A program made the position numbers and the translations under genes. Positions 19,635 through 34,888 of a DNA stretch of 64,000 bases are shown in pieces (position 1 is the stretch's first letter; each line of letters starts with the position of its first letter). The stretch comes from Vicinamibacterales bacterium. Lineage in GTDB: Bacteria; Acidobacteriota; Vicinamibacteria; Vicinamibacterales; 2-12-FULL-66-21. The DNA lies in the NCBI GenBank assembly GCA_035463475.1, contig DATHTE010000123.1, positions 91,775 to 155,774 on the forward strand, given 5' to 3'. Below the pieces are notes generated by a model that was given only the letters and a program-made list of their open reading frames with translations, had not been told where the DNA came from and did not search any database.

Positions 19635-19895
19635 ATTCCGCCGGGGTCTTTAGGGGGAATTCCGGCGAGCTTCGCCTTCAGTCATCCGCCGGGAAAGGTA
19701 TCCGCGAGCACTGGTTTCGCCTTACCGCCGGGTTGGTACGGGCGAGGACTTGGCTTCGCCGTTCCGCAAGGGGTGGGCATCGCCGAGGAATGGCGCCGGC
19801 TTCGGGTATTCCGCGGGTCAGGTCCCGGCGAGTCTGGCGTCGCCTCCGGCATTCCCAGGGGTTCGGAATTTGTTTCGGCATTCGGCATTCGGCAT
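19635..19895. repeat. Array of about 5 degenerate 39-48-bp tandem repeats ending in (TCGGCAT)x3, in an intra-operon spacer
   Basis: Units start at 19638, 19686, 19725, 19764 and 19811. Each has the pattern CCGCCGGG - N6-15 - (C/T)CGGCGAG - N1-12 - TTCGCC(T/G). A tandem TCGGCAT heptamer x3 lies at about 19875-19895. GC3 of the overlapping ORF is poor. Confidence 0.55.
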
Positions 19896-19913
19896 TAACA
19901 AGGAGTCAGTAGT

Positions 19914-21599
19914 GTGCCGGCACGAGTAGCCGTCGTCGCGTACCGCGACGGCATCGCGGAGCCCATCCTGGACGCGCTGCGACGCTCCGCCGGTGTCGAG
20001 CTTTGCGAGCGCGTGCCGATCGATCCGCAGGGAATCGATGCGGTCGCGTTCAGCCGGTACAACACGATCGTGTACTCGGCGCTCCCTGCCGCGGGTCCCT
20101 CAACGGGACCGGACTTGGGGACTGCCCGCGCGGTGTGCCAGCGGCTCGCGTCGTTGCCTCTCCGGCACGTGGTCACCATCTCCAGTGCGGCAGTCTATTC
20201 GCCGAGCCACCAGAACCTCGGTCTGCTCGAGGAGCGCGCGTTCATCCCGTCGCGCAGGAGCGCGATCGCCGATGGGTGGCGCGACGTCGAACAGATGAGC
20301 GCCCTCATCAGCCAGCGTTCGGGCGCGGCGCCGCCGGTCCGCTCGATTCTCCGTCCGGCCGCGGTGCTCGACGGCGTCGATTACTTCAGCCGCCTGCTCG
20401 GCGGACGCGTGGCTGTGACCTATCCCGGTCACGACCCGACGATCCAGCTCCTCAGCCCGTGCGACCTGGCCGACGCGATCGCGGCGGTGATTGCCGCGGG
20501 TCGCGGCGGCACGTTCAACGTGGTGCCGACGGCCGGCGTGCCGTTGCGCGCGGCGCTTCGAATCGCCGGTGTAAAGCGGCTGCCGATCGGCAGGGTGGCC
20601 CAGAACGCCGTCAGGGCGATCACCTCGCAGGCGGGCCTGGCCGTCTCGGCGGACCAGCTGAAATACATCCAGTACTCGTGGACCGTGTCGGGGGAGAAGA
20701 TTAGGCGCGAGCTCGGGTTCGTCCCCTCCCGGTCGAGCGTCCAGGCGATCGTGGAATGCATCGGCCGCGGCACTCCGGCCGATGCGGCGAAGCAGTTCGA
20801 CGACTTCGGCATGGATCCGGATTACATCCGGCGCTACTGCGGCCACCTGTTCCGGTTTCTCCACGACTACTACTGGCGTGTCGAGATCGACGGAATCTCC
20901 GAGGTGCCGCGGAAGGGGCGCGGCGTGCTCGTTGGGATGCACCGCGGGTTCATGCCTTTCGACGGCGTGATGGCGCTGCACGCGCTCGTAACGCGGCGCG
21001 GCCGCATTCCGCGGTTCCTGATTCACCCCAGCCTGACCAAGTTCCCGTTCCTGGCGGACTTCATGGCCAAGCTCGGGGGCATCATGGCCTGCCAGGAGCA
21101 CGGCGACTACGTGCTGCAGCACGACGAGCTGCTCGGCGTGTTCCCCGAGGGCATCCGGGGAACATTCACGATGTACAAGCGGGCCTACATGCTCGGCAAG
21201 TTCGGTCGCGACGAGTTCGTGCGGATGGCGCTGAGGAACCGCGCCCCCATCCTGCCCTTCGTCACCGTCGGAAGCGCGGAGATCTACCCAATCCTGCGGC
21301 GCGTGGACTGGCGGTGGTTCAAGCGCTACACGGAATGGCCGTTCCTGCCGATCACGCCAGCGCCGTTCCCGCTGCCGTCGAAGTGGCACACGCGGTATCT
21401 GCCCGCCATGCACGTCGAGGAGCAGTATCCGCCGGAGGCGGCCGAGGACCCCGCGCTGGTGCATCGCATCAGCCTCGAGGTGCGGCAGCGGATGCAGGCG
21501 GCGATTGACGACATGCTGCTGCGCCGACGCTCGATCTTCTTCGGATCGATCTTCGAGCAGGCGCGCCCGCCGGAAGGCGAGGAGGCCGCGAGCATCTGA
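19914..21599 (+). CDS. Fusion protein: degenerate NAD-epimerase/SDR-like N-domain + lysophospholipid/glycerolipid acyltransferase (PlsC/LPLAT) C-domain
   Basis: GTG at 19914 with AAGGAG 10 nt upstream. The N-half resembles extended SDRs (VVTISSAAVYSP, TFNVVP), but the Gly-rich motif reads VAVVAYRDGIAEP. The C-half has GVLVGMHRGFMPFDG, GVFPEGIRGT (FPEGTR-type motif) and PILPFVTVGSAEIYP. Confidence 0.8.
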   Translation: MPARVAVVAYRDGIAEPILDALRRSAGVELCERVPIDPQGIDAVAFSRYNTIVYSALPAAGPSTGPDLGTARAVCQRLASLPLRHVVTISSAAVYSPSHQNLGLLEERAFIPSRRSAIADGWRDVEQMSALISQRSGAAPPVRSILRPAAVLDGVDYFSRLLGGRVAVTYPGHDPTIQLLSPCDLADAIAAVIAAGRGGTFNVVPTAGVPLRAALRIAGVKRLPIGRVAQNAVRAITSQAGLAVSADQLKYIQYSWTVSGEKIRRELGFVPSRSSVQAIVECIGRGTPADAAKQFDDFGMDPDYIRRYCGHLFRFLHDYYWRVEIDGISEVPRKGRGVLVGMHRGFMPFDGVMALHALVTRRGRIPRFLIHPSLTKFPFLADFMAKLGGIMACQEHGDYVLQHDELLGVFPEGIRGTFTMYKRAYMLGKFGRDEFVRMALRNRAPILPFVTVGSAEIYPILRRVDWRWFKRYTEWPFLPITPAPFPLPSKWHTRYLPAMHVEEQYPPEAAEDPALVHRISLEVRQRMQAAIDDMLLRRRSIFFGSIFEQARPPEGEEAASI

Positions 21600-21783
21600 G
21601 GCGGCGCGCGGCGCCGCTCTGTTCGCGCGCGGACCGACGGAACGTCACGCCGCGCGCCGCCATCGCTTCCGCCGCCCGAGCACCGCGGCCGAAATCCGGC
21701 CGCAGTACTCGACGGAAGATGTGATTAAATAAGGTCCGTTCCCAACACCAGTTGCCGATCGCGAGCTCGGCAGAAAGGCTACC

Positions 21784-22242
21784 GTGGAGATGCGCGAAGT
21801 GGCCAAGTCGATCCTCGGGCTCTCGTGGGCAGTGTCGCTGTTTGGCTTTCAGCAGCTGTCGAAGGCGATGACACCGGCGACGACCCAGCCGTGTGACGTG
21901 ACCGCGACGGAGGTCGATGAAGTGTCGCGCGCGGTGCAGAGTCGGCTCTCCGACTCCGCCGCGCAGCAGTTCCGCGCCGGCGACGAGTGGCAGCGCCGCA
22001 TGGTGGACATCATGTTCGACATGGCGTCGCTGCGGGCGGTCGAGCCGCGCAAGATGGTCGAGGTTCTCGACCCGCGGACGCTGATTGAGACTGCCGATCC
22101 GCGCGCGATGATCGAAACGAGCGTGACCGTGATCCAGAAGAGCATCGACACCGCCGTGAACGCCATGCGGCAGACCGCCGACACGGCCATGGACCTGACC
22201 AAGCGGGCCGTCGATTCGGTCAGGCCATCGGCGACAGCGTAG
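21784..22242 (+). CDS. Hypothetical protein (152 aa); stand-alone copy of the N-terminal module of the 24044 and 33420 proteins
   Basis: GTG at 21784 (AAAGG upstream). EVAKSILGLSWAVSLFGFQQLSKAMTP aligns with DLLKSTLTLPWAISMFGVQQLTNLVTP (24044 protein). ...WQRRMVDIMFDM aligns with ...MQRAMVDLMMF. Confidence 0.6.
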   Translation: MEMREVAKSILGLSWAVSLFGFQQLSKAMTPATTQPCDVTATEVDEVSRAVQSRLSDSAAQQFRAGDEWQRRMVDIMFDMASLRAVEPRKMVEVLDPRTLIETADPRAMIETSVTVIQKSIDTAVNAMRQTADTAMDLTKRAVDSVRPSATA

Positions 22243-22299
22243 TACGACCCTGCGGCGCCGCACGGCGCATGGTCGCACGGGGGGCCGTGCGGAGATCGG

Positions 22300-24021
22300 A
22301 TGGAGACTGCGGTTCACCACGGCGGCTACGTGACGCGGCACCGTGCCGCGCTGGCTGCCGCGCGGCCGATTCTGCGGCGGCTGCCCCACATCCTCCGGGT
22401 GGTGATCGCTCACGGGATCGCGAATGTCGTCGCGTCCCGCCCCCGCCTGCGATGGCTCGCGCGCTGGGCGCCGCTCGCCCGGCTCACCGGTCCGGAGCGC
22501 TTCCGGCGCCTGTTCGAGGACCTCGGCGGGAGCTTCGTCAAGTTCGGGCAGATGCTCGCGCTCCAGCCCGACATCGTCTCCCTCGAGTACTGCGACGAGC
22601 TGTTCAACCTACTCGATCGCATGGCGCCGTTCCCCTACGAGTTCGTCGAGCAGGTCTTCCGGGAGGAGCTGGGCCAGTCACCCTCCGACCTCTTCGATCA
22701 CTTCGATCCCGTGCCGCTGGCGACCGCGTCAATCGGGCAGGTTCATGCCGCGGTCCTGCACGGGCGCAAGGTCGCCGTGAAGGTGCAGCGCCCGGGCGTC
22801 GAGGCCGACTTCGACGGCGACCTCCGCCTGCTCGTGCTCGCCATGCGGTTCATCCGGCGCCTGCAGGTGAGGTCGCTCTACTGGGTGCTCGATCCCGGCG
22901 GTGAGTTCATCTCCTGGACGCGCGAGGAGCTCGACTACCGACGCGAGGCGCGGTACGCCGAGCGGCTGCGGCGCAACGCGGAGTTCAACCCCCAGGAGCG
23001 TGTGCCGGCCATCGTATGGGAGCTGACGACCCGCCGCACGCTGGTGATGGAGTTCATGTCGGGGATGACCGTCCTCGACTACCTGCGCGCCCTCACGACC
23101 GGCGACGAGTGGACGACGTACCGGCTGCGAGCCGACGGGTTCGACCCGAACCTCTTCGCGCGGCACATCATCGACAACTTTCTCGGCGATGCATTTCAGT
23201 ACGGCGTCTTTCATGCCGACCTGCATCCTGCGAACCTTCTCGTGCTGCCGCAGAACGTGGTCGGGTACGTGGACTTCGGCATCACCGGCGTGCTGAGCCG
23301 CTACTCGCGGCGCCACCTGGTCGAGATGACGCTCGCCTACACGCGCGCGGACGTCCGCGGCATGGCCGACGCGTACTTCAAGCTCGTGACGTATCGATCC
23401 GATGCCGACCCCGATCTGTTCCGGCGGCTGCTGGCCGAGACGTCGCAGGACTGGTATGAAGAGGGCGAGGCGGAGACGGTCTTCAGGAAGAACTTCACGC
23501 TGGTGATGCTGGACTTCCTGACGCTGTCGCGCAAGGCGGGTATCGGGCCCGAGCGGGATGTGGTTAAATACATCCGCTCGACCATCGCGGCAGACGGGCT
23601 CATCACGCGGTTTGCGCCCGGGTTCAGCGTGGGACGCCACCTCGAGGACGTCTGCCAGCAATGGATCGCTCGCGAAGCGCGCCGAGTCGCGTTCAGCTAC
23701 AACACGTTGACGGCCCTCGTCGCCTCCGGCGGCCGGCTGATCGAAGACGGGCCCGCGCGCGCCGCCTCCGTGCTGCGGCGGGTCGCCGAGGGCGAAGCCC
23801 TCGGTCGCGTCGACATCACGACAATCGCCCGGCGTGACGAACGCGTGCGCAAGCGCACGATTCGGCTCGCGGGAATCGCCGTGGCGTTCACGGCGTTGCT
23901 CGAGCTCACGGGCGCGGCGCCGGAGCTGGGGCTGAATCTCTTTACCGTCGAAGCGGCACTCGTGGCGGGTGCGTTGCTCCTGCTCGCAGACTCTCTGAGA
24001 GAACTTGCTTTTGCCGGCTGA
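22300..24021 (+). CDS. ABC1/UbiB-family atypical protein kinase (canonical motifs), two C-terminal TM helices
   Basis: GGSFVKFGQMLALQPDIV (KxGQ motif), ASIGQVHAAVL.GRKVAVKVQRPG (catalytic Lys), FHADLHPANLLV, and YVDFGITG (DFG). GGAG lies upstream of ATG 22300. Confidence 0.9.
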   Translation: METAVHHGGYVTRHRAALAAARPILRRLPHILRVVIAHGIANVVASRPRLRWLARWAPLARLTGPERFRRLFEDLGGSFVKFGQMLALQPDIVSLEYCDELFNLLDRMAPFPYEFVEQVFREELGQSPSDLFDHFDPVPLATASIGQVHAAVLHGRKVAVKVQRPGVEADFDGDLRLLVLAMRFIRRLQVRSLYWVLDPGGEFISWTREELDYRREARYAERLRRNAEFNPQERVPAIVWELTTRRTLVMEFMSGMTVLDYLRALTTGDEWTTYRLRADGFDPNLFARHIIDNFLGDAFQYGVFHADLHPANLLVLPQNVVGYVDFGITGVLSRYSRRHLVEMTLAYTRADVRGMADAYFKLVTYRSDADPDLFRRLLAETSQDWYEEGEAETVFRKNFTLVMLDFLTLSRKAGIGPERDVVKYIRSTIAADGLITRFAPGFSVGRHLEDVCQQWIAREARRVAFSYNTLTALVASGGRLIEDGPARAASVLRRVAEGEALGRVDITTIARRDERVRKRTIRLAGIAVAFTALLELTGAAPELGLNLFTVEAALVAGALLLLADSLRELAFAG

Positions 24022-24043
24022 CCCTCGGCAGAAAGGCCCGGTC

Positions 24044-25429
24044 ATGGAAACCACGACGCAATCATCGACGTTTCGCGACCTCCTGAAGTCGACGTTGACC
24101 CTGCCCTGGGCGATTTCGATGTTTGGCGTCCAGCAGCTCACCAACCTCGTGACGCCGCCGCCGGCCGGGCGCGTGGCGGGCGCGACCTCCGCGCTCGACA
24201 CCGTCAGCGACGTGACCGCGAAACAGCTCGACGGCTGGCTGAAACAGACCTACCAGCTCGGCACCGGCATGCAGCGTGCGATGGTGGACCTCATGATGTT
24301 CCGCACGCCCGACATCGATCAGAGTACGCTCATGCGCATCGCCGCCGAGATGCAGGATGGCCCACTGTTCGAGGCGGTCGTGAAGTACGGGCTCCCGCCG
24401 GTCGGCTGGCTCGACTCGTGGCTCGTGTCGCGGCGCGACGCGCCGGCCGTCACGCAGGAGTTCACGAACAAGCTCTACATCATCTCCCTCGTGACCCACG
24501 TGCATTCCGAGCTCGGGCTCAGCTCGAAGACCGTCGACCCGCTCGGCGTGCTGGTCGACAAGGTGGCGGAAATGCCGACGTTTCCCCGCGTGTGGGCCAC
24601 CGAAGGGCTTGGCAACTGGTTTGGCGATCTGGCGATGGAGCGGGCGGCCGACGGCCCGGATCCCACTGGTCTGCTCACCGACCCGCAATACGACTCGCTC
24701 CCGGCGTGGAGCATGACGATGCTGCACGCAGGCATCGGCATGTCGTTCGGCAAGGCGATCCTCAAGAAGCTCGAGCCGACGAGCTCGCCGGAAACCATCC
24801 GGGGAGAGCTGGCCCGCTTCCTGAGGTTGTGTCGTGAATCGTCGCGTCCGGGATACGCCGGCGCCGCGCTCGAGTCGCTTGGCCTCGCGACCCGGTCGCT
24901 GTATCCAAACCTGCTGCCGGTCCTCGACCGCGAGATGCCGTACGTCGATCCCGATCTGCAAAGCTACTACTGGCACGGCGCTGGCCGCGCGATGTACTTC
25001 GAGCCGGCGGGCTGGCTGCCCTCGGTCAACGCGCCGTGGCGCGTCATCAGGCGGCTCGACGCGGAGACGCCGCACGACCTCGGTCGCAAGAACATCCTCT
25101 CTGGCATCGGGTGGGCGCTCTCGGTCGTCAACATGCGTCATCCGGTGGTGATGGAGACGTTCCTGCGCCATCACGCGGCGCTGGCGAGGACCGAGGACGC
25201 GTTCACCAACGGCGTCGTCTCGTCGCTGATGATGCGGTTCGACACGACGCGCGACGACGCGCACATCTCCCCCTACATTCGCTACGAACCGTCTGATCCG
25301 GAGGTCGCGTCGGCGTGGCGGACGCTGATTACCGAGCCGTGCGAGCACGCCCTGCGCGACACGTACGGCAACCTGCTGCGGACCAACTCGCTCGAGCAGC
25401 TGTTCCACTACCGCCCGGCGGGAAGCTAG
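24044..25429 (+). CDS. Hypothetical protein: shared N-module + DUF1702-like (enediyne UnbL-type) C-terminal domain
   Basis: ATG at 24044. The C-domain has MLHAGIGMSFG, GYAGAALESLGLA, SYYWHGAGRAMYF and GIGWALSVVN. This is the periodic HxGxG / aromatic-EGxG pattern I associate with DUF1702. It is paralogous to the 33420 protein. Confidence 0.65.
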   Translation: METTTQSSTFRDLLKSTLTLPWAISMFGVQQLTNLVTPPPAGRVAGATSALDTVSDVTAKQLDGWLKQTYQLGTGMQRAMVDLMMFRTPDIDQSTLMRIAAEMQDGPLFEAVVKYGLPPVGWLDSWLVSRRDAPAVTQEFTNKLYIISLVTHVHSELGLSSKTVDPLGVLVDKVAEMPTFPRVWATEGLGNWFGDLAMERAADGPDPTGLLTDPQYDSLPAWSMTMLHAGIGMSFGKAILKKLEPTSSPETIRGELARFLRLCRESSRPGYAGAALESLGLATRSLYPNLLPVLDREMPYVDPDLQSYYWHGAGRAMYFEPAGWLPSVNAPWRVIRRLDAETPHDLGRKNILSGIGWALSVVNMRHPVVMETFLRHHAALARTEDAFTNGVVSSLMMRFDTTRDDAHISPYIRYEPSDPEVASAWRTLITEPCEHALRDTYGNLLRTNSLEQLFHYRPAGS

Positions 25430-25445
25430 AGCCGGCCGCGGAGCG

Positions 25446-27029
25446 ATGGCCACGTCACTGGTAGCGCGCAGCCCCGCGTCCGGCCGCGACGGCCGGCGGA
25501 AGCAGGTCGAGACGGTACTCAACGCGCTCGGTCTCCCCGTTCCCGAGCGCCGCTCGCCGCCACCCGAGGGGCGCCTCGGGGCGGACGAGGACTACGGGCG
25601 CCGGCTGCGCGAGGCGCTCACCGATCTCGGCCCGGTCTTCGCCGGCTTCGGCCGGTACCTCGGGTCGCGCGCCGATCTGGCGCCGCGGCGCACGCGCGCC
25701 GAACTGGCGACGATCCCGGACGAGGGGCAGGCGCTGCCGTTCGCCTCGGTCGCGGCACTGGTGCGCGCGCAGCTCGGGGCGCGGCCCGAGCGGCTGTTCT
25801 TCGAGTTCCATCGGGATCCCGTCGCGGTCGGCTCGTGGACGCAGTCGCATCTGGCGTGGCTCGCCCCAGGGGTGCCGGCGCTGGTGACCATCGTCCGTCC
25901 CGATGCCGCCGACGAGCTCGATATCGACATCCCGCTGCTGCCTCTTCTCGCGCCGTGGATCGACGTGCCTGCCGGCCTTCTTGCCGCCGCGGTCGCGGAC
26001 TACGAGTTGACGGTGCGGCGACGCCTGGATCAGAAGCACCAGGCTGCCTCGCTGACCAGTCTCGCGGCCGACGCCCGCAGCGGCGGAGGATTCGACGCGC
26101 CTGCCTGCTACCGCGATCACTGCGCGCCGAACGTCCTGACGGTCGAGCGGCTCGTCGGAGAGCCCCTCGACGCGCAGCCGCGTGGGGCTGAGGCGCTGGC
26201 GCGCCGGGTAACGGCCGCCTGGCTGCGACAGGCCTTCGCCGGCAACGTGGTGCCCTATGACTTCGGGCCGCGCGACCTCGTCGTGATCGACGAGCGCCTT
26301 GTGCTCACGGGGGGCGCTCTCGAGCCCCACTCGTCGGTCGAACGTGCGCGCTTCGCGGCGTACCTGAGCGCCGTCGCCTCCGACGATCCCGACGCGGCCG
26401 CCAACTGGATTGTCGAGGGGGCCAGTCCATCTCCCGCCGTCGAGTCGAGGCTTCGGCGCCTGTTGCGGCAGGCGGTCCCGTTCCGCGAAGGCGAGTGGAG
26501 CGGCGATGATCGCCTCGTGCAGCACGTGCTCGTGCAGTGGCGTGTCGCGCGCAACGCGGGGTGGCCCGTCTCACCCCATCATCTCCACCTGTACCGCGGC
26601 CTCCAGGCGGTGGCGCAGATTGCGCATGACCTCGCGCCTGACGTGGACACGCTGCTCCGGGCGCTCGAGGACGAACGCCTGCGAATCGGCCTGTCGCAGG
26701 CGGGCGAGTTGCTCAGCCCGCGCTACGCCGTGGCGACCCTCGACCGCGCGATCCAGGAACTCGCCGATCTTCCACAGAAGTTCGATGACGTGCTGACGAT
26801 GGCGTCCCAGGGGCGATTGCGGATGAACCTGCAGGTACCCGAGGCGGAAGAGAACGAGCGCGTCCGCAACCGCACCGTGCTGCTCGTGACCACGCTGGTC
26901 GCCTTCGCGGCGGTCGCCACCATCGCGCGCCACCTTGCGCCCGCATTCGGCGTCGGCATCGAGCGCGCCGGCGCGATCATCCTGCTGCTGGTGGGCGGGT
27001 GGCTGCTGTTCGCCGCGTCCCGGTTGTGA
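25446..27029 (+). CDS. ABC1/UbiB-like pseudokinase (catalytic motifs degenerate), two C-terminal TM helices
   Basis: LGPVFAGFGRYLGSRADLAP replaces the KxGQ motif. ALVTIVRPD replaces VAVKVQRPG. PYDFGPRDLVV replaces HADLHPANLLV. No DFG is present. It has the same length and architecture as the 45925..47505 paralog. Confidence 0.75.
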   Translation: MATSLVARSPASGRDGRRKQVETVLNALGLPVPERRSPPPEGRLGADEDYGRRLREALTDLGPVFAGFGRYLGSRADLAPRRTRAELATIPDEGQALPFASVAALVRAQLGARPERLFFEFHRDPVAVGSWTQSHLAWLAPGVPALVTIVRPDAADELDIDIPLLPLLAPWIDVPAGLLAAAVADYELTVRRRLDQKHQAASLTSLAADARSGGGFDAPACYRDHCAPNVLTVERLVGEPLDAQPRGAEALARRVTAAWLRQAFAGNVVPYDFGPRDLVVIDERLVLTGGALEPHSSVERARFAAYLSAVASDDPDAAANWIVEGASPSPAVESRLRRLLRQAVPFREGEWSGDDRLVQHVLVQWRVARNAGWPVSPHHLHLYRGLQAVAQIAHDLAPDVDTLLRALEDERLRIGLSQAGELLSPRYAVATLDRAIQELADLPQKFDDVLTMASQGRLRMNLQVPEAEENERVRNRTVLLVTTLVAFAAVATIARHLAPAFGVGIERAGAIILLLVGGWLLFAASRL

Positions 27030-27031
27030 TC

Positions 27032-29515
27032 ATGATGCCCGGCGGGCCGCAGGCAGCCAGATCCGCGTACTTGTCGCTCGCGACGGGGGGCGGTGGAGAG
27101 TCGTCGCCCATTCTCTTCGCATCCAATCCGGTGGGGGACGCGCTGCTGGCGACCGGCATGATGGCGGTGGCCGGCGCGGCGACGATGGTCCCCGTCCTGC
27201 CCGTCCGCATTTCCGGGATCGCGGTCCGCGAGACGCTGCACCGCCTCGGCACCGAGGCGCTTCCGCCGACCCCGGAGCGCGGCGTGACCGCCGCCAACCG
27301 GCTGGGCGAAGCGCTCGGCACAATCGCGATGCGCTGGCTGGTCGCTCCCGAGGGGTTCGAGGCCACGCCGTCGGTGCCTCCACCCCACACCGAGCTGGAT
27401 TCGTCGCGGTCGCAGCGGTTCGTGATGCAGGACGGCGCCCTGCGCTTCCAGGACCGCACGCAGAGCGGCCTGCGCTTCTTCGGCGCCGGACGTACCTATC
27501 CCTCGAAGGGGAACGGAAACGGCCACCTCCTGTTCGCCGGCGCCGCGGTGGTCGTCGAGGGCCTCGGCCGGTTGAGGGGACTACGCGGCAGTCTCAGCGT
27601 CGCCGGCGAGATCTCCGGGCGATCGCTGGTGTCCCTGGTCGTCACGGGTCGCTTCGACGACGACGGGCCGCTCGAGATGGTCGAGCGGGTCGGCCTCATG
27701 ATCGACAGCGCGCCGGGCTGTCCGAACGCGACGGTGCTGGTGCTGGCGGGTGAGTCGAACGGCGGCTCGGCGATGGGCCAGATCGAGGAGCGCCTCCGCA
27801 TGGCGCGCATCGAAAACGACCTGGCGAACGCCACACAGCCACGCAGCGCCTTCCATGCCGGCGAGAACGTTGGGAGCGCGACCGGACCGTTGCGGTTCGA
27901 TCCGTCCGACCGCCGCTGCGCGATTCGCCTGATCGACGGCCGGCGCGAACTGACGTTCGGCGACGCCGCGGGGCAGCCGGTCGCGACGATCGTCGCAGAT
28001 GCCCTCGAGGGCACCACCTTTCGAGATCAGCACGCGGGCGAGCACGTGTCGCGCGTGATCGCGTACGGCCAGTTATCGGAGGGCACCGGCGCGCTGGCGG
28101 GCGCGGGGGGAATCCTGGCCATCGACACGGCGGTCTCGATCGACGCATCTGCCTCCAGCGTGTATACGCTGTGGCTGATCGACGAGCGAGGCCGGTTTCG
28201 CGCGCCGGCACCGGCGCCCGCCGCTGCGATCTCGCGCGCGAGCACGGCGCCCGGGCCGGCAGAGGAGCTCCAGTTCGTCGAGACGAGCGCCGCGTCGATC
28301 CTGCCCGCCGACGTCGCGATTCTCGCCCATGCCCAGCGGACGCTCGCGGACGGGGGCGATCTGAACCAGTGGCTCCAGGAGAAGAGTCGATCCGCCGACT
28401 ACCGAGAGCGGTTCGACGTCGTTCGGGAGCACACCTCCGACGACGACAGCTTCGGCTTCTTCGACGTGGCGCCGGTCGGCGGCACCCAGATGCCGGTGAT
28501 GGGCATCGTCCAGGAGATGTTCTACGACCGTCAGAAGCTGGGAAGCCCGGAGCCGATACGCGAGCAGCTCGCGGAGTTCGTCCTGCGCTATTTCATGCGT
28601 GTGTGTCACGCGGGCGAACCCGAAGCCGTCCCGGCCAGGCCCGGGGCGCCCGACACGGCGCTGCAGCGCGCCATGAGCTGGCTGCCCGGAGAGGCGCAGC
28701 GCAGCGCCGGAGCGGGGTACCAGCAGCTGTATTACGGGCTCGCCGAGTCGGGACAGACCGGGAAGTTCACGCACGACGAGCGTCCGGCGATCGTCGACCT
28801 GCGGGAGATCGGATCGAAGTACGAGTGGATCCTGCTCAAGGGAGACACGCTCTCCTTCGATCTTCCGTTCGTGCCGTTCGGGGCGGAGGTCACCACGCCG
28901 CAGGCGCCGGCAAAGCAATCCACGTATCTGCTGATGGCGCCCGCCTTCGTGGTCAACGCCCACGACCCTGAGCCGGGTGTGCTCGGCCACTACGGCTTCG
29001 GTTACGCGTTCGTGCCGTACGCCTCCGGCGGCCCGGGCCTGCTCGCCTACGGCCCCGGCCGGTTCCGCGCGGCGGTCCAGGCGGTGAGCTTCAAGCTGAT
29101 GGCGAACGGCGAGATCCGCGCCCGCACGATGTTCGTGGTCGCCCGGCCGGATAAAATCGCGGCGGTCGACGTGGATCCAATCGGGTGGAGCGTGCAGCTG
29201 GCGGACCTCGTGACGTTCCGGATGGCGTCGCGGCTCATGGGGCCCGTGCTCGCGATGGCCGACCGCCTTCCGCTGCACGCCCGGGATTTCGATCCGGTTG
29301 CGGCCTACATCTGGATGGCCAATACAATGACCGCCGGCATGGCCGAGAACTACCTCGGCATTTCGAAGGCCGCGCTCGAGAAGCGTATGCTGTTCCAGCA
29401 CCTGCGGTCGCACCAGGAGATGTTGCATCGATCACTGCGGATCTGGCGCATGGTGCCGGACTGGACCGCGCACGCGAAACTGCCGGACTTCTGCCATCGG
29501 GGCATGGGATGTTGA
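27032..29515 (+). CDS. Large hypothetical protein (827 aa); the C-terminal roughly 330 aa are homologous to the 52265..53284 protein
   Basis: ATG at 27032, 2 nt after the upstream stop. High GC3 throughout. C-terminal REIGSKYEWILL, GFGYAFVPYA and YGPGRFRAAVQAVSFKLMANGEIRARTMFVVARPDKI align with REIGTKYQWSLL, AIGYPFIDYA and FGPGKFDWAVKTYSFLLRDNNEVRCDMEFVAGARAKKV. Confidence 0.7.
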   Translation: MMPGGPQAARSAYLSLATGGGGESSPILFASNPVGDALLATGMMAVAGAATMVPVLPVRISGIAVRETLHRLGTEALPPTPERGVTAANRLGEALGTIAMRWLVAPEGFEATPSVPPPHTELDSSRSQRFVMQDGALRFQDRTQSGLRFFGAGRTYPSKGNGNGHLLFAGAAVVVEGLGRLRGLRGSLSVAGEISGRSLVSLVVTGRFDDDGPLEMVERVGLMIDSAPGCPNATVLVLAGESNGGSAMGQIEERLRMARIENDLANATQPRSAFHAGENVGSATGPLRFDPSDRRCAIRLIDGRRELTFGDAAGQPVATIVADALEGTTFRDQHAGEHVSRVIAYGQLSEGTGALAGAGGILAIDTAVSIDASASSVYTLWLIDERGRFRAPAPAPAAAISRASTAPGPAEELQFVETSAASILPADVAILAHAQRTLADGGDLNQWLQEKSRSADYRERFDVVREHTSDDDSFGFFDVAPVGGTQMPVMGIVQEMFYDRQKLGSPEPIREQLAEFVLRYFMRVCHAGEPEAVPARPGAPDTALQRAMSWLPGEAQRSAGAGYQQLYYGLAESGQTGKFTHDERPAIVDLREIGSKYEWILLKGDTLSFDLPFVPFGAEVTTPQAPAKQSTYLLMAPAFVVNAHDPEPGVLGHYGFGYAFVPYASGGPGLLAYGPGRFRAAVQAVSFKLMANGEIRARTMFVVARPDKIAAVDVDPIGWSVQLADLVTFRMASRLMGPVLAMADRLPLHARDFDPVAAYIWMANTMTAGMAENYLGISKAALEKRMLFQHLRSHQEMLHRSLRIWRMVPDWTAHAKLPDFCHRGMGC

Positions 29516-31308
29516 CGAGCAAGCCGTACGACGTGGACGTGGTGATCGTGGGCGCGGGGCTTGCTGGCCTCTCGCTCGCGCGCCAGCTGCTGATGGCCGA
29601 CGACGCCGTCACGATTCTTCAACTCGACAAGCGGCAGCAGGTTCCGCCCACCGGACAGAAGGTGGGCGAGGCCACGGTCCAGGTGAGCGGCTACTACTGG
29701 TCGAAAGTGCTCGATCTGGAGGAGCACCTGCTCCGCGAGCACTACATGAAGTACAACCTGCGATTCATCTGGAAGACCGCCGGACTCGATCCCTCGCGGA
29801 TCGAGAGCTACAGCCAGTCGTACATCCGGCGCATCTCCAACGTCGCGAGCTACCAGCTGAATCGCAACAAGCTCGAGGCGGAGCTGCTGCGGCGCAATCT
29901 CGAAGCCGCCGATCGGTACGAGTTCCACAATCACGCGCTGGAGCTGAAGATCGATCTCGATCGTGACGGCGGCCCGCACCGGGTGTCGTACATCCGCGAA
30001 GGTGAGCGGCGTTCCCTCACCGCGCGGTGGGTGGTGGACTGCGCGGGACGCGCCCACGTGCTGCAGAAGCAGCTCGGGCTCCAGAAGTCGAACAGCATCC
30101 GCCACGGCGCGTCGTTCCTGTGGGTGGACGGCCTGCTCAACTACGAGGCCCTGACCGATTCGACACCCCGTCAGATCCGGCTGAACCCGCAGCGCGCGTA
30201 CACCGGCCACCTGCCCTTCTGGCTGGCGACGAACCACTTTCTCGAGGAAGGGCTGTGGTTCTGGGTGATTCCGCTGCAGGGCATCACGAGCCTGGGCCTC
30301 GTCTACGACCGGCGCGTCATTGCTCCCGAGGTGGTGAACCACCCGAAGCGCCTGGTGGAGTGGATCTGCGAGCACTTCCCGGCGTTCGAACGGGACCTGC
30401 CTCGCCGGAAGATCCTCCACGCGGCCAGCTATCGCGACATCTCGTTCGACGCGGTGCAGACGATCGATCGCCATCGCTGGGCGATGGCGGGCGAGGCGGG
30501 GCGCTGGTCGGACCCGCTGTACAGCCCCGGCGGCGACGTGATAGCCATCTACAACACGCTGGTGTGCGATTCGATCCTGACACGCGACCAGGCCGAGCTC
30601 GACGCGAAGGTGCCGCTGTACGAGGAACTGGAGCGCGCCGTCTACGCGGCCTATCTGCCCAGCTTCCAGATCGGCTACGACTGCCTCGGAGACCAGGAAG
30701 CGCACTCGCTGAAGTACGTCTGGGAGCTGACCATCTACTTCGCGTTCTACGTCTTCCCGTTCATCAACGATCTCTTCACCGATCGGCGGTTCCTGGCGGC
30801 GTACCTGCGGACGTTCACGAGGCTGGGCCGTGTGAACCTCGCGGTGCAGGGCTTGCTGAACCGCTACTATCACTGGAAGAAGGAGAACCGCGAGCCGGTC
30901 ACGTCGCCGATCTTCTTCGAGCTCTTTGACGTGCCGGGGATCGCGGTTGCCGAAGGGACGTTTTACAGGGTGGGCGTGTCGGTCGAAGAAGCGCGGCCGA
31001 TCCTGGAGGACCAGCTGGCCAACGCGATGATGCTCGCGCGCTACCTTGCCGCGCACGTGTATGCGATGGTGCTCGACGAGCCTGCGCTGGTGTGGAACCG
31101 ATCGTTCGTTTCGAGCCTCGACCTCGAAACGCTCTCCTTTGATCCGGTCAGGATGGCCGCCGACTACGCGCCGCACGCCGGCTGCGGCGAGAGGTACGCC
31201 TGGCCGGCCGGCTGGGACCCTGAGGTCGCGTTCTGCTTCAAGACGCCGCGGCGCGTCCCGGTTGTGGCTCTCGCGAGCTCGGCCACCGCGGTCTCGGAGG
31301 GGTTGTGA
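29509..31308 (+). CDS. Flavin-dependent halogenase-like FAD enzyme (tryptophan-halogenase family)
   Basis: ATG at 29509 within ATGTTGA, overlapping the upstream stop. VVIVGAGLAGLSLA (GxGxxG), TGQKVGEATV (K-x-GE[AS] with candidate catalytic Lys), EEGLWFWVIPLQG (WxWxIP), GRWSDPLYSPGGD (DPxxSxG). Confidence 0.75.
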   Translation: MLTSKPYDVDVVIVGAGLAGLSLARQLLMADDAVTILQLDKRQQVPPTGQKVGEATVQVSGYYWSKVLDLEEHLLREHYMKYNLRFIWKTAGLDPSRIESYSQSYIRRISNVASYQLNRNKLEAELLRRNLEAADRYEFHNHALELKIDLDRDGGPHRVSYIREGERRSLTARWVVDCAGRAHVLQKQLGLQKSNSIRHGASFLWVDGLLNYEALTDSTPRQIRLNPQRAYTGHLPFWLATNHFLEEGLWFWVIPLQGITSLGLVYDRRVIAPEVVNHPKRLVEWICEHFPAFERDLPRRKILHAASYRDISFDAVQTIDRHRWAMAGEAGRWSDPLYSPGGDVIAIYNTLVCDSILTRDQAELDAKVPLYEELERAVYAAYLPSFQIGYDCLGDQEAHSLKYVWELTIYFAFYVFPFINDLFTDRRFLAAYLRTFTRLGRVNLAVQGLLNRYYHWKKENREPVTSPIFFELFDVPGIAVAEGTFYRVGVSVEEARPILEDQLANAMMLARYLAAHVYAMVLDEPALVWNRSFVSSLDLETLSFDPVRMAADYAPHAGCGERYAWPAGWDPEVAFCFKTPRRVPVVALASSATAVSEGL

Positions 31309-32738
31309 TCAGCAGCCTGCTGGAAGATCTCTCGCCGCTCATCGAGCGCGCGTTTTCGATCGACGTCGTCGAGCACGCGGACGTGCCGGTGCCGATCGAC
31401 GGCAGCGTCCCGGCCCACGTGCGTGGTTCCTGCTATTTCAACGGCCCGGCGCGGTTCGAGCGCGCGGGTCTGCGGTACCGGCACTGGCTCGACGGCGACG
31501 GGATGGTGTGCGCGCTCAGGGTCGGGCGCGAAGGCGCGCGACTGAGCAACCGATTCGTCCGCAGCGAAAAATTCCTCCGCGAGCAGGCCGCCGGCCGGCC
31601 GATCTTCCGGACGTTCGGCACGGCGTTCACGGGGGACACGCTCAAGCGCGGCGTGGGCCTTGAATCGCCCGTCAACGTCAGCGCGTACCCGTTCGGCGGC
31701 GCGCTGCTCGCGTTTGGCGAGCAGGGGCTGCCGTGGGAGCTCGACCGGGGGACGCTCGAGACGCGCGGCCTGTACACGTTCGGCCGGCAGATCAACGAGC
31801 TCACGCCGTTCAGCGCGCATCCGAAGATCGACTACCAGACCGGCGAGCTGTTCAACTTCGGCGTGTCGTTTTCCGCGTCGGCGCCGCTCATCAACCTGTT
31901 CCGCTTCCGCGCCGACGGCCGGCTGGTGTACCGCAAGCGTCTGCCGCTGCCGTACCCGGCCTCGACGCACGACTTCGCGATCAGCGGCCGTCACATCGTC
32001 GTCTACGTGAGCCCGCTCGTCCTCCGGATGGAGGCCCTGCTCCAGGAGGGGGCGACCGTGATGGACGCGCTCTCGTGGAAGCCCGAGCTGGGCAGCCAGC
32101 TGATCGTCGCCGACCGCGAAACCGGCGACGAGGTGGCGCGCCTCAACGTCGGGCATCAGTACTGTCTCCACATGGTCAATGCCTTCGAGCGGGACGGCCT
32201 CCTCGTCGTGGACGTGGTCGAGTACGAGAAGCCGCTGTATCCCGAGTACCAGGTGATCCCGAACCTGTTCTCGGATTCGTTCCGCGGGCGTCCGGTGCGA
32301 CTCGTCGTTGACGTCCACAAGCGGACGGTGGCGTCGCGAACCGAGCTCGAGTACGCGAACTCGCCCGACTTCCCGGCGCACGATCCGGCGCTGACGGGGC
32401 GTCCGTACGATCACTTCTGGATGCTCGGCATCAGCCGCGCGGGGCGCCCCGGACGCAAGTTCTTCGACGAGATCGTCCGCATCGACTGGCCGACCTCGTC
32501 GGTCGAGGTCTCGCAGGCGCCGCCGCTCCACTATTTCGGCGGCGAGCCGCTGTTCGTGCCGGATCGCTCGCGGCCCGGGACCGGAGCGGTGATCTGCCAG
32601 ATGTTCGACGCGGAGCGCAGCGCTTCGTCGTTCGTCGTCTTCGACGCGTTTCGCCTCGCGGCCGGACCGGTGGCCACCCTGCGGCTGCCGTCGCCGGTTC
32701 CGTTGCTGTTCCACTCGTCCTTCCTGGCGCAGGCGTGA
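31305..32738 (+). CDS. Carotenoid/stilbene-cleavage oxygenase family protein (RPE65/CCD fold)
   Basis: GTG at 31305 (GTGA overlap). YRHWLDGDGMV, FSAHPKIDYQTGELFNF, STHDFAISGRHIV, CLHMVNAFE and LLFHSSF give the four-His iron ligand pattern of CCDs. Confidence 0.9.
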   Translation: MISSLLEDLSPLIERAFSIDVVEHADVPVPIDGSVPAHVRGSCYFNGPARFERAGLRYRHWLDGDGMVCALRVGREGARLSNRFVRSEKFLREQAAGRPIFRTFGTAFTGDTLKRGVGLESPVNVSAYPFGGALLAFGEQGLPWELDRGTLETRGLYTFGRQINELTPFSAHPKIDYQTGELFNFGVSFSASAPLINLFRFRADGRLVYRKRLPLPYPASTHDFAISGRHIVVYVSPLVLRMEALLQEGATVMDALSWKPELGSQLIVADRETGDEVARLNVGHQYCLHMVNAFERDGLLVVDVVEYEKPLYPEYQVIPNLFSDSFRGRPVRLVVDVHKRTVASRTELEYANSPDFPAHDPALTGRPYDHFWMLGISRAGRPGRKFFDEIVRIDWPTSSVEVSQAPPLHYFGGEPLFVPDRSRPGTGAVICQMFDAERSASSFVVFDAFRLAAGPVATLRLPSPVPLLFHSSFLAQA

Positions 32739-33385
32739 ACGTGGAGGGGAGCCGACGTCACGGTGCCGCCTTCGACCGCCTGGCTGACCTCGCGGCGGTC
32801 CGGACGGCGACGATTGCGAAGGTCACGCCGCTGTCGCAGGCGCAGCTGGATTTCTCTCCGCGCCCGGGCCGATGGTCGATTGGCGAGATTGCCGATCACC
32901 TGCGGCTGTCCGAGCTGCTCTGGCGCGGCGAGATCAGCCGTCTCGTCGATCTGGCGCGCGAGGGCAAGCCCACGTACCTCAAGCGCTCTTTCGCGGACAT
33001 CAACGTGTCGCCGGCGCTGGTCCCCGACGCGGTCCTCTCGATGCTGGAGGTGCCGCTCGGGATCATGTCCCGGTTCATGCCCGACGCCATCGTCGGCATG
33101 ATGACCGAGCTGCCAATCCTGCCGATGCGCAACCCGGACGCGGCCACGCCGCGGGCCCGGCGTCCCGCCGCCGAGCTGATCGCTGAGCTGAACGCCGCGA
33201 TCGCTCAGACCGAACGGCTGATCGAGGCCAATGCCGGCCTCGACTTCGATCGGATGATCTCCGCGCATCCGCTGATGGGGTCCAACAATGTTCCGCAGAT
33301 GCTGACGATTGTCGCGCGGCACGAGCGGCGCCACCACGTGCAGATGGATCGCGTTCGAGCGGATTCGGGTTTCCCCCGCCTGTAG
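32735..33385 (+). CDS. DinB-fold (DinB_2) metal-dependent protein
   Basis: GTG at 32735 (GTGA overlap). RWSIGEIADHLRLSE (His 1), then HPLMG...MLTIVARHERRHHVQM (C-terminal His cluster), in a four-helix-bundle-sized protein. Confidence 0.8.
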   Translation: MNVEGSRRHGAAFDRLADLAAVRTATIAKVTPLSQAQLDFSPRPGRWSIGEIADHLRLSELLWRGEISRLVDLAREGKPTYLKRSFADINVSPALVPDAVLSMLEVPLGIMSRFMPDAIVGMMTELPILPMRNPDAATPRARRPAAELIAELNAAIAQTERLIEANAGLDFDRMISAHPLMGSNNVPQMLTIVARHERRHHVQMDRVRADSGFPRL

Positions 33386-33419
33386 GGGCCCTTATAATTC
33401 GAGTCATACACCCGGAGCT

Positions 33420-34670
33420 ATGACAGTGACCCAGGCTACCGAACGGACCAATCCCCTCACGGACATGATGCACACCACCGGCGACCTGATGAAATCGGTC
33501 GGCCGGTTCTCCCTCGCCATGTCGCTGCTCGCGGCGCGTCAGGCCATGGCGATCGTGTCGCGCCCGAAAGCGGCGTCCGGCGAGCTCGACGACGTGACGC
33601 GGGCCGCGGGCGGTCACCTGTCGGGCGCCGTCCGCACCGCGTTCGCGATTGGCGCGAACGTGCAGAGCGGCCTCGTCGACGCCGCGTTCGACGCCGTCGG
33701 CATGCGCCCGAAGGGGCAGCAGCCGTCGGGCGACACGACCGCGCTCTCGGTGCCGATGACGACCGGCGTGCCGCGTCGCGTCGCCGGCGTGCGGACGGTC
33801 GCGTCGGGCGCCGTGGATCGCGGGGTGCCGCAGTCCGAGCTCGTGCAGCGGCTGACCGAGTACCAGACGGAGTCGACCGGCCGCCCGGTGGAGCGCGCCA
33901 AGGCGGTCACCGGCCTGTGGAAGTCGGAAGGGCTGTCCACGTCGGTCGGCAAGCACCTTCTTCCCGAGAACTCGCTGGCAGACCCGAACTTCCCGCGCGA
34001 GGTCGTGCCGATCGCGCACGTGGGGTTCGGCTCCGGATCGACCGAGGATCTGGTGTTCGACGTCGCGAAGCTGAACGGGCTGTTCGCGGCGCGCTGCGCC
34101 CCCGCGTACATCGGTTTCGCGTACGAAGGGATCGGCGCCATCCTGCGCATCTATGAGCGCGGCTTCTTCAAGCTGATGAGCGGCGCGCTCGGTCTCATTC
34201 GCCTCGACGCGCCCGACGGGCCGAACGCGGAGGGGCTGTTCGCCGACTATCTCAGTCAGTACCCTGAAGACCGGCAGTGGCTGATCGTTCACGGGTACGG
34301 TCGCCTCGTCGCCTTCAGCAACATGAACATCTACAAGGCGATCGAAGAGATCACGACGTATCCCGCCGATCGCGTGGACCCCGCCGTGCGCGGCGCCGCG
34401 TTTGCGTTCGCCATGATGAACAGCGCCGACCTGCCCAGGGTCCTCGACGAGAGCGCCATTCCGTTCGACCGATCCATCCGCGTGTCGTTCCAGAACGGCC
34501 TGGTGAACAGTGTGGTGTTCTTCGACTGGTTCCTGCCGGGACTGCTCGAAGACTGGCGGCCGCAGGGCGCGCTCGAAGGGGAATTGATCGATCACGCGCG
34601 CCTCGAGGCGGCCGCCGCGCGCGAACGCGGGTATCCGCTCGCGATGCAGCTCGAACACCCGCGCACGTAG
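33420..34670 (+). CDS. Hypothetical protein: shared N-module + DUF1702-like domain (second paralog)
   Basis: ATG at 33420 with GGAG upstream. N-terminal GDLMKSVGRFSLAMSLLAARQAM...VQSGLVDAAFD. C-domain IAHVGFGSG, GFAYEGIGAILRIYE, WLIVHGYGRLVAF, GAAFAFAMMN. Confidence 0.65.
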   Translation: MTVTQATERTNPLTDMMHTTGDLMKSVGRFSLAMSLLAARQAMAIVSRPKAASGELDDVTRAAGGHLSGAVRTAFAIGANVQSGLVDAAFDAVGMRPKGQQPSGDTTALSVPMTTGVPRRVAGVRTVASGAVDRGVPQSELVQRLTEYQTESTGRPVERAKAVTGLWKSEGLSTSVGKHLLPENSLADPNFPREVVPIAHVGFGSGSTEDLVFDVAKLNGLFAARCAPAYIGFAYEGIGAILRIYERGFFKLMSGALGLIRLDAPDGPNAEGLFADYLSQYPEDRQWLIVHGYGRLVAFSNMNIYKAIEEITTYPADRVDPAVRGAAFAFAMMNSADLPRVLDESAIPFDRSIRVSFQNGLVNSVVFFDWFLPGLLEDWRPQGALEGELIDHARLEAAAARERGYPLAMQLEHPRT

Positions 34671-34888
34671 CGCGCGATCCCGTTTCACCCACCGCCGCTC
34701 ACGCCGGGCGACGCGGCGCGCCAGCGTCCGCGAGCCCGGCCGTCTCCGCGCAGGTTCAAGGCCGAGACGGTAATCCAGAAGCATTACCGGCAGGACCCGA
34801 ACAACTTTTCTTGCGCGCGCCGCTTTTCTTGTGCGATCGCGCTGACATAGAATGCGTGGGCGTTTTTGGAGCATCGAGTGGAGGACTC

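Follow-up and report, generated by a model that had tools for sequence, protein, structure and literature searches.

An acidobacterial gene cluster joining an active/degenerate UbiB pair to orphan protein families, with a possible role in specialised lipid metabolism

Nine tightly packed genes (g1–g9; 21784–34670, + strand) in the DNA of a Vicinamibacterales bacterium were found to form part of a gene cluster that is conserved in other acidobacterial genomes. The genes lie within the window analysed here, a 64-kb stretch of contig DATHTE010000123.1 with a G+C content of 68%, and all coordinates given below are those of the window. The invariant core of the cluster comprises an active UbiB (ABC1) protein, a degenerate UbiB protein, proteins carrying a common N-terminal module (the N-module) and the C-terminal half of an orphan protein (g5C), and not the tailoring enzymes encoded alongside them. 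Literature searches for this combination of genes found no published description, in agreement with an earlier reading of the DNA from its letters only (the sequence-only reading), which knew of no pathway composed of such genes and had regarded the system as uncharacterised.

Conservation of the gene cluster

Conservation of gene order beyond the source genome, named beforehand as the decisive check, was assessed by a profile-guided scan in which each GTDB species was represented by one genome, and the proteins of the window were mapped onto the loci found. The cluster was present at 15 genome loci, all from Vicinamibacterales or Acidobacteriota metagenome-assembled genomes (MAGs), and at dozens of metagenome loci. 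Gene order is kept at these loci, which removes the lack of synteny that the sequence-only reading had set as a refutation. The metagenome scan yielded 438 relatives of g3 and 79 loci, and a diverged version of the cluster was seen on contigs of the Blastocatellia/Pyrinomonadaceae type.

The layout of the cluster is variable. The contiguous form has the order KS...AT-g2-g1-g3-g4-g5-g6-g7-g8(-g9), where KS is a ketosynthase and AT an acyltransferase gene. In the split form a single genome carries two loci, the first arranged HK-KS1-KS2-HMGR-CrtI-ACP-AT-g1-g5' (HK, histidine kinase; HMGR, HMG-CoA reductase; ACP, acyl carrier protein; g5', a paralogue of g5) and the second g2-g3-g4-g5-g6-g7-g8-g9-ABC transporter-CLC-AlgE (ABC, ATP-binding cassette). 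Both g5 paralogues are found in the joined form (L011, L021 and L022), and the source window looks like this form minus the g5 paralogue. The sequence-only reading had placed the nine genes directly downstream of, and co-directional with, a KS/ACP operon. This adjacency is borne out (14042–21599, followed by a spacer of 184 nt between the acyltransferase gene and g1), but the two do not hold as separate units, as AT, g1 and the g5 paralogue stay with the KS cassette in the split form. The nine genes and the six genes upstream of them are tentatively grouped as one conserved acidobacterial supercluster, an arrangement that is quite possible but falls short of probable.

Co-occurrence with g3 was counted in loci of at least 15 kb, divided into close loci (g3 at least 50% identical, n = 16) and remote loci (g3 below 50% identity, n = 10; G+C 0.54–0.68). 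The degenerate UbiB gene g4 was found in all 26 long loci (16/16 close, 10/10 remote), and g2 and g5C each accompanied g3 in 16/16 close and 9/10 remote loci, followed by g1 (15/16 and 9/10) and AT (11/16 and 6/10). The tailoring genes were frequent in close loci and rare in remote ones: g6 was present in 15/16 and 2/10, g7 in 14/16 and 2/10, and g8 in 13/16 and 1/10. Genes for patatin and redoxin showed the opposite distribution, with 0/16 close loci for both and 6/10 and 5/10 remote loci respectively. The core usually lies beside a PlsC-type acyltransferase gene and often beside a cassette encoding KS, a chain-length factor (CLF), ACP, and HMGR-like and CrtI-like enzymes; the KS cassette was present wherever the flank was long enough (L079 and L095), and in L017 and L099, both of them remote, AT adjoins ABC1 genes. 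The adjacent g6-g7 pair was encountered again in remote loci L017 and L078 and on a JGI contig, where it is next to KS and an ApeP/ApeI-type dehydratase gene.

Other genes interrupt the set in some relatives. A Na+/H+ exchanger gene lies between g7 and g8 in L007, L012 and L014, and a reverse-strand MaoC-type dehydratase gene precedes g9 in L007, L011 and L014, L011 also having a substrate-binding-protein gene. The packing of g1–g9 in the window supports the nine-gene single unit of the sequence-only reading, but membership of g9 in the same transcription unit is not constant across genomes; as the MaoC gene parts g8 from g9 elsewhere, g9 is not always co-transcribed with the rest.

An active and a degenerate UbiB protein

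The product of g2 (22300–24021, +) matched PF03109 at 201.7 bits (cut-off 22.9) and has all of the UbiB motifs, KxGQ (KFGQ), ATASIGQVH, VAVKVQRP, HADLHPAN and VDFG, which are kept in 38 homologues. A C-terminal hydrophobic segment (545–563) is predicted to be a membrane anchor. The scores against the UbiB equivalog models of NCBIfam were below their cut-offs (TIGR01982/NF003404, 260.8 vs 487.55 and 198.9 vs 667), and, as judged from these scores, g2 is a member of the UbiB family but not a ubiquinone UbiB.

The partner, g4 (25446–27029, +), matched PF03109 at 68.3 bits and, on alignment, is without the catalytic Lys, HxD and DFG, VAVKV being replaced by LVTIV and HADLHPAN by VPYDFGPRD. This loss holds across 46 homologues, and own conserved residues of g4 are retained down to 30% identity, a pattern that fits a selected, non-catalytic partner. 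Hydrophobic segments are again found towards the C-terminus (about 476–527). The pseudokinase call of the sequence-only reading is therefore upheld, since the ABC1 fold is present and the catalytic residues are gone, and by its alignment g4 is classed as a pseudo-enzyme.

A paralogous second ABC1 pair is encoded on the minus strand (45925–49220). The active member (47502–49220) matched PF03109 at 177 bits and is 49% identical to g2; its degenerate partner (about 45925–47500) matched at 26.7 bits and is 30% identical to g4. The pair is followed by genes for a TauE/SafE-family membrane protein (44915–46165) and a Redoxin protein (44327–44896), the region 44327–49921 being mostly minus strand, and is faced by an AhpC/TSA gene (49286–49921). 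In locus L004 the same ABC1-ABC1-TauE-Redoxin set is positioned after g8.

Two preprints on UbiB/COQ8 point to ATP-driven extraction of lipid intermediates and their chaperoning to a metabolon, with prenylquinone intermediates as the known substrates (bioRxiv 10.64898/2026.02.03.703536, 10.64898/2026.03.05.709815). On the strength of this work and of the membrane anchors of g2 and g4, a role in lipid handling is considered more likely for the pair than one in kinase control.

The orphan proteins

The N-module is found in three of the nine proteins: g1 (21784–22242, +) is a stand-alone N-module protein of 152 aa, g3 (24044–25429, +; 461 aa) joins the module to an all-alpha repeat domain of an orphan family, and g9 (33420–34670, +; 416 aa) is a second N-module protein and a paralogue of g3. 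Their common module, already proposed by the sequence-only reading, was confirmed by hhalign, which aligned g1 with the N-termini of g3 (E=1.5e-16) and g9 (E=1.8e-10) and showed that g3 and g9 are homologues along their full length (317 columns, probability 97%, E=4e-11). The module is helical and ~85 aa long; its first helix is moderately hydrophobic and the next one amphipathic. It occurs on at least five bodies: alone, on g3-type and g9-type proteins, and on proteins of about 470, 724 and 1147–1177 aa. Its presence on bodies that are not related to one another suggests a general device for targeting or anchoring. Reading it as a microcompartment or encapsulation peptide was rejected, as no shell genes were present and the module has ~85 aa vs ~18 aa for such peptides.

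Neither g3, g5 nor g9 gave a Pfam or NCBIfam match, even at E<=10, and g1 gave none above threshold. The phasin-like C-terminus of g1 is a weak resemblance only, the scores lying below the thresholds for Phasin_2 (19.6 vs 24.9 bits) and TIGR01841 (21.6 vs 30.2). When the g3 and g5 profiles were searched against PDB sequences, nothing significant was found, and BMC-domain matches (E~0.4) are treated as noise. The sequence-only reading had called g3 and g9 'DUF1702-like' and enediyne-associated. PF08012 was not matched by either protein even at E<=10, nor by 10 remote homologues, and none of 71 diverse family members matched it at E<=1; the DUF1702/enediyne-associated label is rejected at the sensitivity of direct Pfam scans.

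The AlphaFold2 (AF2) model of g3 is all-helical (predicted local distance difference test, pLDDT, 88.3), with three lower-confidence N-terminal helices before a high-confidence alpha-repeat body. Full-length AF2 models of g3 and g5 were used as Foldseek queries against the PDB, and g3 retrieved only generic HEAT/ARM solenoids (E>=0.1), with no informative fold match. The g3 family is far larger than that of g5: HMMER returned 1267 matches among 1.84 billion representative proteins, 476 of them below 1e-30, and the named relatives belong to Pyrinomonadaceae, 'Acidobacteria bacterium' and one Tectomicrobia MAG. In predicted proteins from short contigs, the remote members P0238 and P0286, the alpha-repeat domain is combined with a radical-SAM domain and with a RidA/L-PSP domain; these combinations could be genuine fusions or gene-calling artefacts.

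The 827-aa orphan g5 (27032–29515, +) fuses a beta-rich N-terminal half to an alpha/beta C-terminal half (g5N and g5C), which are separate, adjacent genes in remote loci L062 and L068. Just 64 full-length homologues were found, all at least 44% identical, and those with names are from Vicinamibacterales. Its AF2 model (pLDDT 75.7) is beta-rich in the N-terminal half and gave only weak Foldseek matches, to small hydrophobic-ligand beta-barrels (dirigent, DUF3598 and BFA1). A g5C-like open reading frame (ORF; 52277–53059, +), for which no Pfam match was found, was detected by tblastn with 26% identity over 303 aa (g5 residues ~418–709, E=2e-19). It is located directly after a gene for an UnbV protein, and a gene for a FadL/Toluene_X outer-membrane channel for hydrophobic compounds is nearby (53917–55290, +). 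A FadL gene also follows a g2-g3-g4-g9 set in locus L016.

Organisation of the nine genes

Nine co-directional, tightly packed genes for mostly uncharacterised proteins, as described in the sequence-only reading, were borne out by the sequence, by domain scans and by analysis of frame and third-position G+C (GC3). The latter, with the ORF listing, gave an uninterrupted run of plus-strand genes from 14042 to 34670. Every junction within g1–g9 is an overlap or a gap of at most 57 nt, and all of the junctions previously singled out were read in the sequence. The largest internal gap, also after the start corrections given below, is the 57 nt between g1 (stop 22242) and g2 (ATG 22300). It is followed by gaps of 22 nt (g2/g3), 16 nt (g3/g4) and 2 nt (g4/g5; TGA-TC-ATG at 27027–27034, that is 27029/27032), an ATGTTGA overlap (g5/g6; 29509–29515), GTGA overlaps at g6/g7 (31305–31308) and g7/g8 (32735–32738), and a gap of 34 nt (g8/g9). 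About 180 nt separate g9 from the next gene, which encodes an ABC permease.

The start of g3 was corrected from TTG 24005 to ATG 24044 because the database protein P0065 has the same length of 461 aa. For g9 the most likely start, on sequence evidence, is ATG 33420, which has GGAG 6 nt upstream; TTG 33309 is unlikely, as orthologues align only from residue ~39–48 of the long ORF. An identical 11-mer, GGCAGAAAGGC, is present at 21769–21779 and 24027–24037 (+), with no further exact copy in the window. The copies are 4 nt before the g1 start and 6 nt before the g3 start, both of these genes begin with the N-module, and the repeat is probably a common ribosome-binding context inherited through duplication. 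In a consensus scan for promoters and terminators, sites were no more frequent than in shuffled sequence, and the scan is therefore uninformative on transcript boundaries. No RNA family was found in an Rfam scan of the whole window.

The upstream ketosynthase cassette

The six upstream genes include the parts of a type II KS-CLF system: a ketosynthase with a Cys-His-His triad, a partner without the Cys, and a discrete ACP. KS1 (14042–15262, +; PF00109/PF02801, TIGR03150 E=2.7e-124) is an active FabF-like ketosynthase with a complete triad (the ACAAG Cys, HGTG and GHT). In KS2 (15250–16485, +), a CLF-like partner by Pfam and by KS1/KS2 alignment, the active-site Cys is replaced by Ala (GGAASG) and the second His by Glu. 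A reductase of the HMGR family, class I type (16485–17723, +; PF00368 353 bits), has the ENPIG, DAQGMN and GGGT motifs and scored 322.7 bits against TIGR00533, short of the 441.8 required of an equivalog. Next come a flavoenzyme of the CrtI/phytoene-desaturase family (17745–19247, +; PF01593), with 163 bits against TIGR02734 (cut-off 238), and the ACP, which has a DSL motif (19313–19576, +; PF00550). The 561-aa acyltransferase AT (19914–21599, +) consists of ~320 N-terminal residues without assignment and a PlsC-type domain (PF01553, residues 322–450) with a weak DAGAT match; it had no NCBIfam or PDB sequence match. A HisKA_3 histidine kinase gene (12650–13987, −) is divergent from KS1, an arrangement kept in L005, L015 and L025.

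Tailoring enzymes

The product of g6 (29509–31308, +; 599 aa) is a flavin-dependent-halogenase-like enzyme that passed the Trp_halogenase threshold (PF04820, 37.3 bits, cut-off 21). GxGxxG (GAGLAG), GEAT, WxWxIP (W.WvIP) and two Lys are kept in 21 homologues; the invariant Lys follow GEAT, in SKVL and in KYNLRF, and HMMER pairs the second with a Lys of CtcP. A search of PDB sequences placed g6 closest to three halogenases, CtcP, ChlB4 and CndH (best E=5e-10). The FAD-binding part also gave weak matches to UbiH-type hydroxylases, geranylgeranyl reductase and lycopene cyclase, and a C-terminal extension of ~250 aa is without match. The carotenoid-cleavage-type oxygenase (CCO) g7 (31305–32738, +) matched RPE65 (PF03055) at 333.6 bits. 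Its best PDB match is Synechocystis apocarotenoid oxygenase (ACO; E~1e-47), and four iron-binding His (FSAHPK, HDF, CLH.vNAFE and LFHS) are conserved and aligned with those of ACO. The DinB-fold protein g8 (32735–33385, +) matched DinB_2 (PF12867, 60 bits, cut-off 24.8) and MST (30.6 bits); DHL, HP and HErrH residues are conserved in 17 homologues, and it is probably a thiol- or metal-dependent transferase.

A possible role in specialised lipid synthesis

We tentatively favour, at rather less than an even chance, the reading that the supercluster encodes a metabolon, located at a membrane or lipid surface, for the synthesis and oxidative tailoring of a specialised polyunsaturated (polyene-type) lipid. 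From the observed gene content, motifs, homology and linkage we infer the substrate class, the order of steps, a role for the N-module and a possible halogenation. A polyunsaturated acyl or polyene substrate is suggested because the KS-CLF/ACP set, the CrtI-like and halogenase-like enzymes and the C=C-cleaving oxygenase all point there. KS1, KS2 (CLF) and ACP would make the acyl or polyene chain, with reductive steps borrowed from fatty-acid synthesis or from nearby dehydratases, and the chain or its thioester end would be modified by the CrtI-like flavoenzyme and the HMGR-like reductase before the PlsC-type acyltransferase puts it onto a lipid backbone. The C-terminally anchored g2 and g4 may together use ATP to lift the hydrophobic intermediate from the bilayer, rather than serve as a regulatory kinase, and g5, with its beta-barrel-like domains, may hold the lipid. 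Tailoring would then be carried out by g6, a halogenase-like flavoenzyme, g7, a four-His C=C-cleaving oxygenase, and the DinB-fold g8, while the N-module of g1, g3, g9 and other bodies would gather its carriers at one lipidic surface or at the UbiB pair. Of the earlier suggestion that a polyene or isoprenoid lipid is modified under kinase control, the link to a polyene-type lipid remains plausible and the kinase part has become less likely.

Several points weigh against this reading. The genes for ketoreductase (KR), dehydratase (DH), enoyl reductase (ER), malonyl-CoA:ACP transacylase (MCAT), starter unit and export expected of a self-contained polyene pathway are absent from the window. The tailoring enzymes g6, g7 and g8 may be accessory and not core, as they occur in one or two of the ten remote long loci, a count partly limited by flank length. 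The halogenase assignment of g6 comes from motifs alone; the fold matches of g5 are weak (E>=1e-3, template-modelling score, TM, <=0.59 on the target only), and those of g3 are uninformative. Every carrier found so far is an uncultured MAG or a metagenome contig, and look-ups of homologues by taxon and name identified no cultured carrier. Finally, redoxin (peroxiredoxin) genes in 5/10 and patatin genes in 6/10 remote loci, together with the second ABC1 pair, which is linked only to TauE and Redoxin, suit lipid repair or turnover at least as well.

A more speculative form of the proposal, which we consider improbable, draws on analogy with plant plastoglobules. The cluster would encode the proteome of an unrecognised bacterial lipid body or membrane microdomain, functionally like plastoglobules, with the N-module as a dedicated targeting signal for cargo proteins (g1, g3, g9 and, in related loci, proteins of 470 to 1177 aa). 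A specialised polyene lipid, possibly halogenated, would be carried to and fro between bilayer and enzymes by a heterodimer of active and pseudo UbiB.

Alternative explanations

The alternative that survives best, although unlikely, is a system for lipid repair and turnover. The UbiB pair would extract polyunsaturated or isoprenoid lipids from the membrane once these are damaged (peroxidised or electrophilic), and the extracted lipids would be detoxified and recycled by a peroxiredoxin, a patatin-type lipase, an acyltransferase (through re-acylation), a DinB thiol-transferase, a flavoenzyme and a C=C-cleaving oxygenase. The Redoxin/AhpC and patatin genes lie within the cluster in the remote loci counted above, the second ABC1 pair is followed by TauE and Redoxin genes and faces an AhpC gene, and in L004 the ABC1-ABC1-TauE-Redoxin tail is attached to the cluster after g8. 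DinB-fold enzymes also include thiol S-transferases, and g8 has a weak MST match. The Vicinamibacterales versions, the source operon included, have neither a redoxin nor a patatin gene (0/16), however, and the dedicated KS-CLF-ACP cassette, linked again in close and remote loci, points to synthesis, as do the ApeP/ApeI-type dehydratases that also occur.

A module for isoprenoids, carotenoids or prenylquinones is distinctly unlikely. HMGR would lead to mevalonate, the CrtI-like enzyme and CCO would act on carotenoids or apocarotenoids, and the UbiB pair with the flavin monooxygenase-type g6 on a prenylated quinone or carotenoid, in the manner of the Ubi metabolon or of plant plastoglobules. The class I motifs of the HMGR, the presence of a CrtI-family enzyme, the closeness of g7 to the Synechocystis enzyme and the weak matches of g6 to UbiH-type hydroxylases, geranylgeranyl reductase and lycopene cyclase are all consistent with this, as are the prenylquinone intermediates known as UbiB substrates. 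Yet no prenyltransferase, phytoene synthase, HMG-CoA synthase or mevalonate kinase was found among the scanned genes of the window, the HMGR-like and CrtI-like scores are under their equivalog or subfamily cut-offs, and both genes sit between the KS-CLF pair and ACP, which are fatty-acid/polyketide parts.

The sequence-only reading had invoked kinase control, with the ABC1 proteins phosphorylating and regulating the tailoring enzymes. Against such a role, the N-terminal KxGQ extension of the UbiB family, which g2 keeps, is thought to occlude the protein-substrate cleft. Although g2 retains all of the kinase-like catalytic motifs, active/pseudo pairs are common in kinase signalling and at least one plant plastoglobule ABC1K is reported as a Mn2+-dependent protein kinase (PMC8956952), kinase control is very unlikely, as the pair is membrane-anchored, is the most conserved part of the cluster and travels with lipid-binding-type orphans and not with any one enzyme, and as the UbiB/COQ8 work favours ATPase-driven lipid extraction and chaperoning. 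The favoured reading remains that of a metabolon for a polyene-type lipid.

Neighbouring genes

Downstream of g9 are genes for a NitT/TauT-type ABC permease and ATPase (~34850–36566, +), a CLC chloride channel (37671–38972, −) and an alginate-export-type porin (39056–40525, +), a neighbourhood kept only in the closest relatives (L001, L003, L010 and L013). The location of the chloride channel gene near a halogenase-like gene may hint at a functional link. The NitT/TauT-type transporter, TauE and a PALP enzyme nearby raise a possible link to sulfonolipids; beyond the closest relatives these neighbours are not conserved.

Genes for six FG-GAP/UnbV_ASPIC (CRTAC1-like) proteins are scattered about the cluster (10333–12024, −; 41959–44319, −; 49914–52268, +; 56465–58843, +; 58840–60570, +; 61260–62999, +), and genes of this type lie directly upstream of the acyltransferase gene in remote loci L017 and L099. 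These UnbV-type neighbours may be the source of the earlier enediyne-associated impression. A BBE/FAD-linked oxidase (40574–42106, −) and a Crp-family regulator (3829–4677, −) are also encoded.

Significance

Among soil bacteria, Vicinamibacteria and Blastocatellia rank with the most abundant and the least cultured groups, and little is known of their lipid biology. Four families for which Pfam, NCBIfam and the PDB sequences offer no relative are brought together in the cluster, namely the N-module, the alpha-repeat domain of g3 and g9, g5N and g5C; more than 1200 representative homologues belong to one of them. The recurrence of an active/degenerate UbiB pair in a compact system makes UbiB function outside ubiquinone synthesis, as a lipid-extraction ATPase or a kinase, directly testable. 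A new class of lipid or pigment, maybe halogenated or polyene-derived, and a new protein-targeting module are possible outcomes. The lipid-body reading, if true, would add a new organising principle of lipid metabolism in a soil phylum that ranks among the most abundant and the first function assigned to non-ubiquinone UbiB pairs in bacteria.

Comparison with known systems

The cluster resembles the Ubi/COQ metabolon in that g2, with all UbiB motifs and a C-terminal anchor, is encoded beside a flavoenzyme of group A type and putative lipid-binding proteins, in line with the way in which UbiB delivers membrane-embedded intermediates to a soluble complex with flavin monooxygenases and the lipid-binding UbiJ. 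It differs in that no ring-modifying gene (UbiA/D/X/G/E) was found among the scanned genes of the window and the UbiB equivalog score of g2 is far under the cut-off (260.8 vs 487.6). Nothing in the Ubi system, for its part, corresponds to the obligatory degenerate UbiB partner, to the N-module proteins, to g5, or to the CCO and the halogenase-like enzyme. Acidobacteriota are menaquinone organisms.

Features in common with the aryl-polyene, xanthomonadin and flexirubin clusters, which are type II PKS-like pigment clusters, are a KS-CLF heterodimer with a separate ACP, an acyltransferase of the lysophospholipid type, which would fix the chain to a lipid, an enzyme resembling flavin halogenases and, in one related (remote) locus only, an ApeP/ApeI-like dehydratase. 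Xanthomonadins are brominated and some flexirubins are chlorinated. Unlike these clusters, the region 14042–34670 has no aryl starter gene (ammonia lyase or adenylating enzyme), KR, thioesterase or MMPL/LolA export gene; neither the 15 cluster genes nor the other scanned genes of the window supplied KR, a DH pair, aryl starter activation, thioesterase or MMPL/LolA. The HMGR-like and CrtI-like enzymes, UbiB pairs, CCO, DinB protein and four orphan families also set the cluster apart.

Among characterised halogenases, CndH and ChlB4 are carrier-protein-dependent flavin halogenases and CtcP is a free-substrate halogenase. Like them, g6 has GxGxxG and WxWxIP; its Trp_halogenase score is above threshold, and HMMER aligns one of its conserved Lys with a Lys of CtcP. 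It is unlike them in its low similarity (E=5e-10 at best), its ~250-aa C-terminal extension and its conserved CCO partner. We know of no characterised halogenase pathway with a CCO partner.

In its functional classes the cluster closely parallels the plant plastoglobule proteome: both have a number of ABC1/UbiB proteins, a carotenoid-cleavage dioxygenase, an acyltransferase of DAGAT/PlsC type, a flavoenzyme and abundant structural proteins of the lipid surface. Plastoglobules carry ABC1K, CCD4, PES acyltransferases, the NDC1 flavoenzyme and fibrillins, the coat being attached through amphipathic helices and lipocalin-like barrels (PMC12587418, PMC3635846, PMC13409515). The parallel is an analogy of composition only. 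No PAP_fibrillin domain was found in Pfam scans of the cluster proteins, g1, g3, g5 and g9 are not sequence homologues of any plastoglobule protein, and the plant genes are dispersed whereas the acidobacterial ones are in an operon.

The cluster shares its logic with the Ubi/COQ and aryl-polyene-type systems and, in composition only, with plastoglobules; it lacks defining features of the first two, and no fibrillin of the third was found in Pfam scans. It is best placed as a lipid-biosynthetic or lipid-handling type arranged around UbiB proteins, and its core of orphan families could be categorically new.

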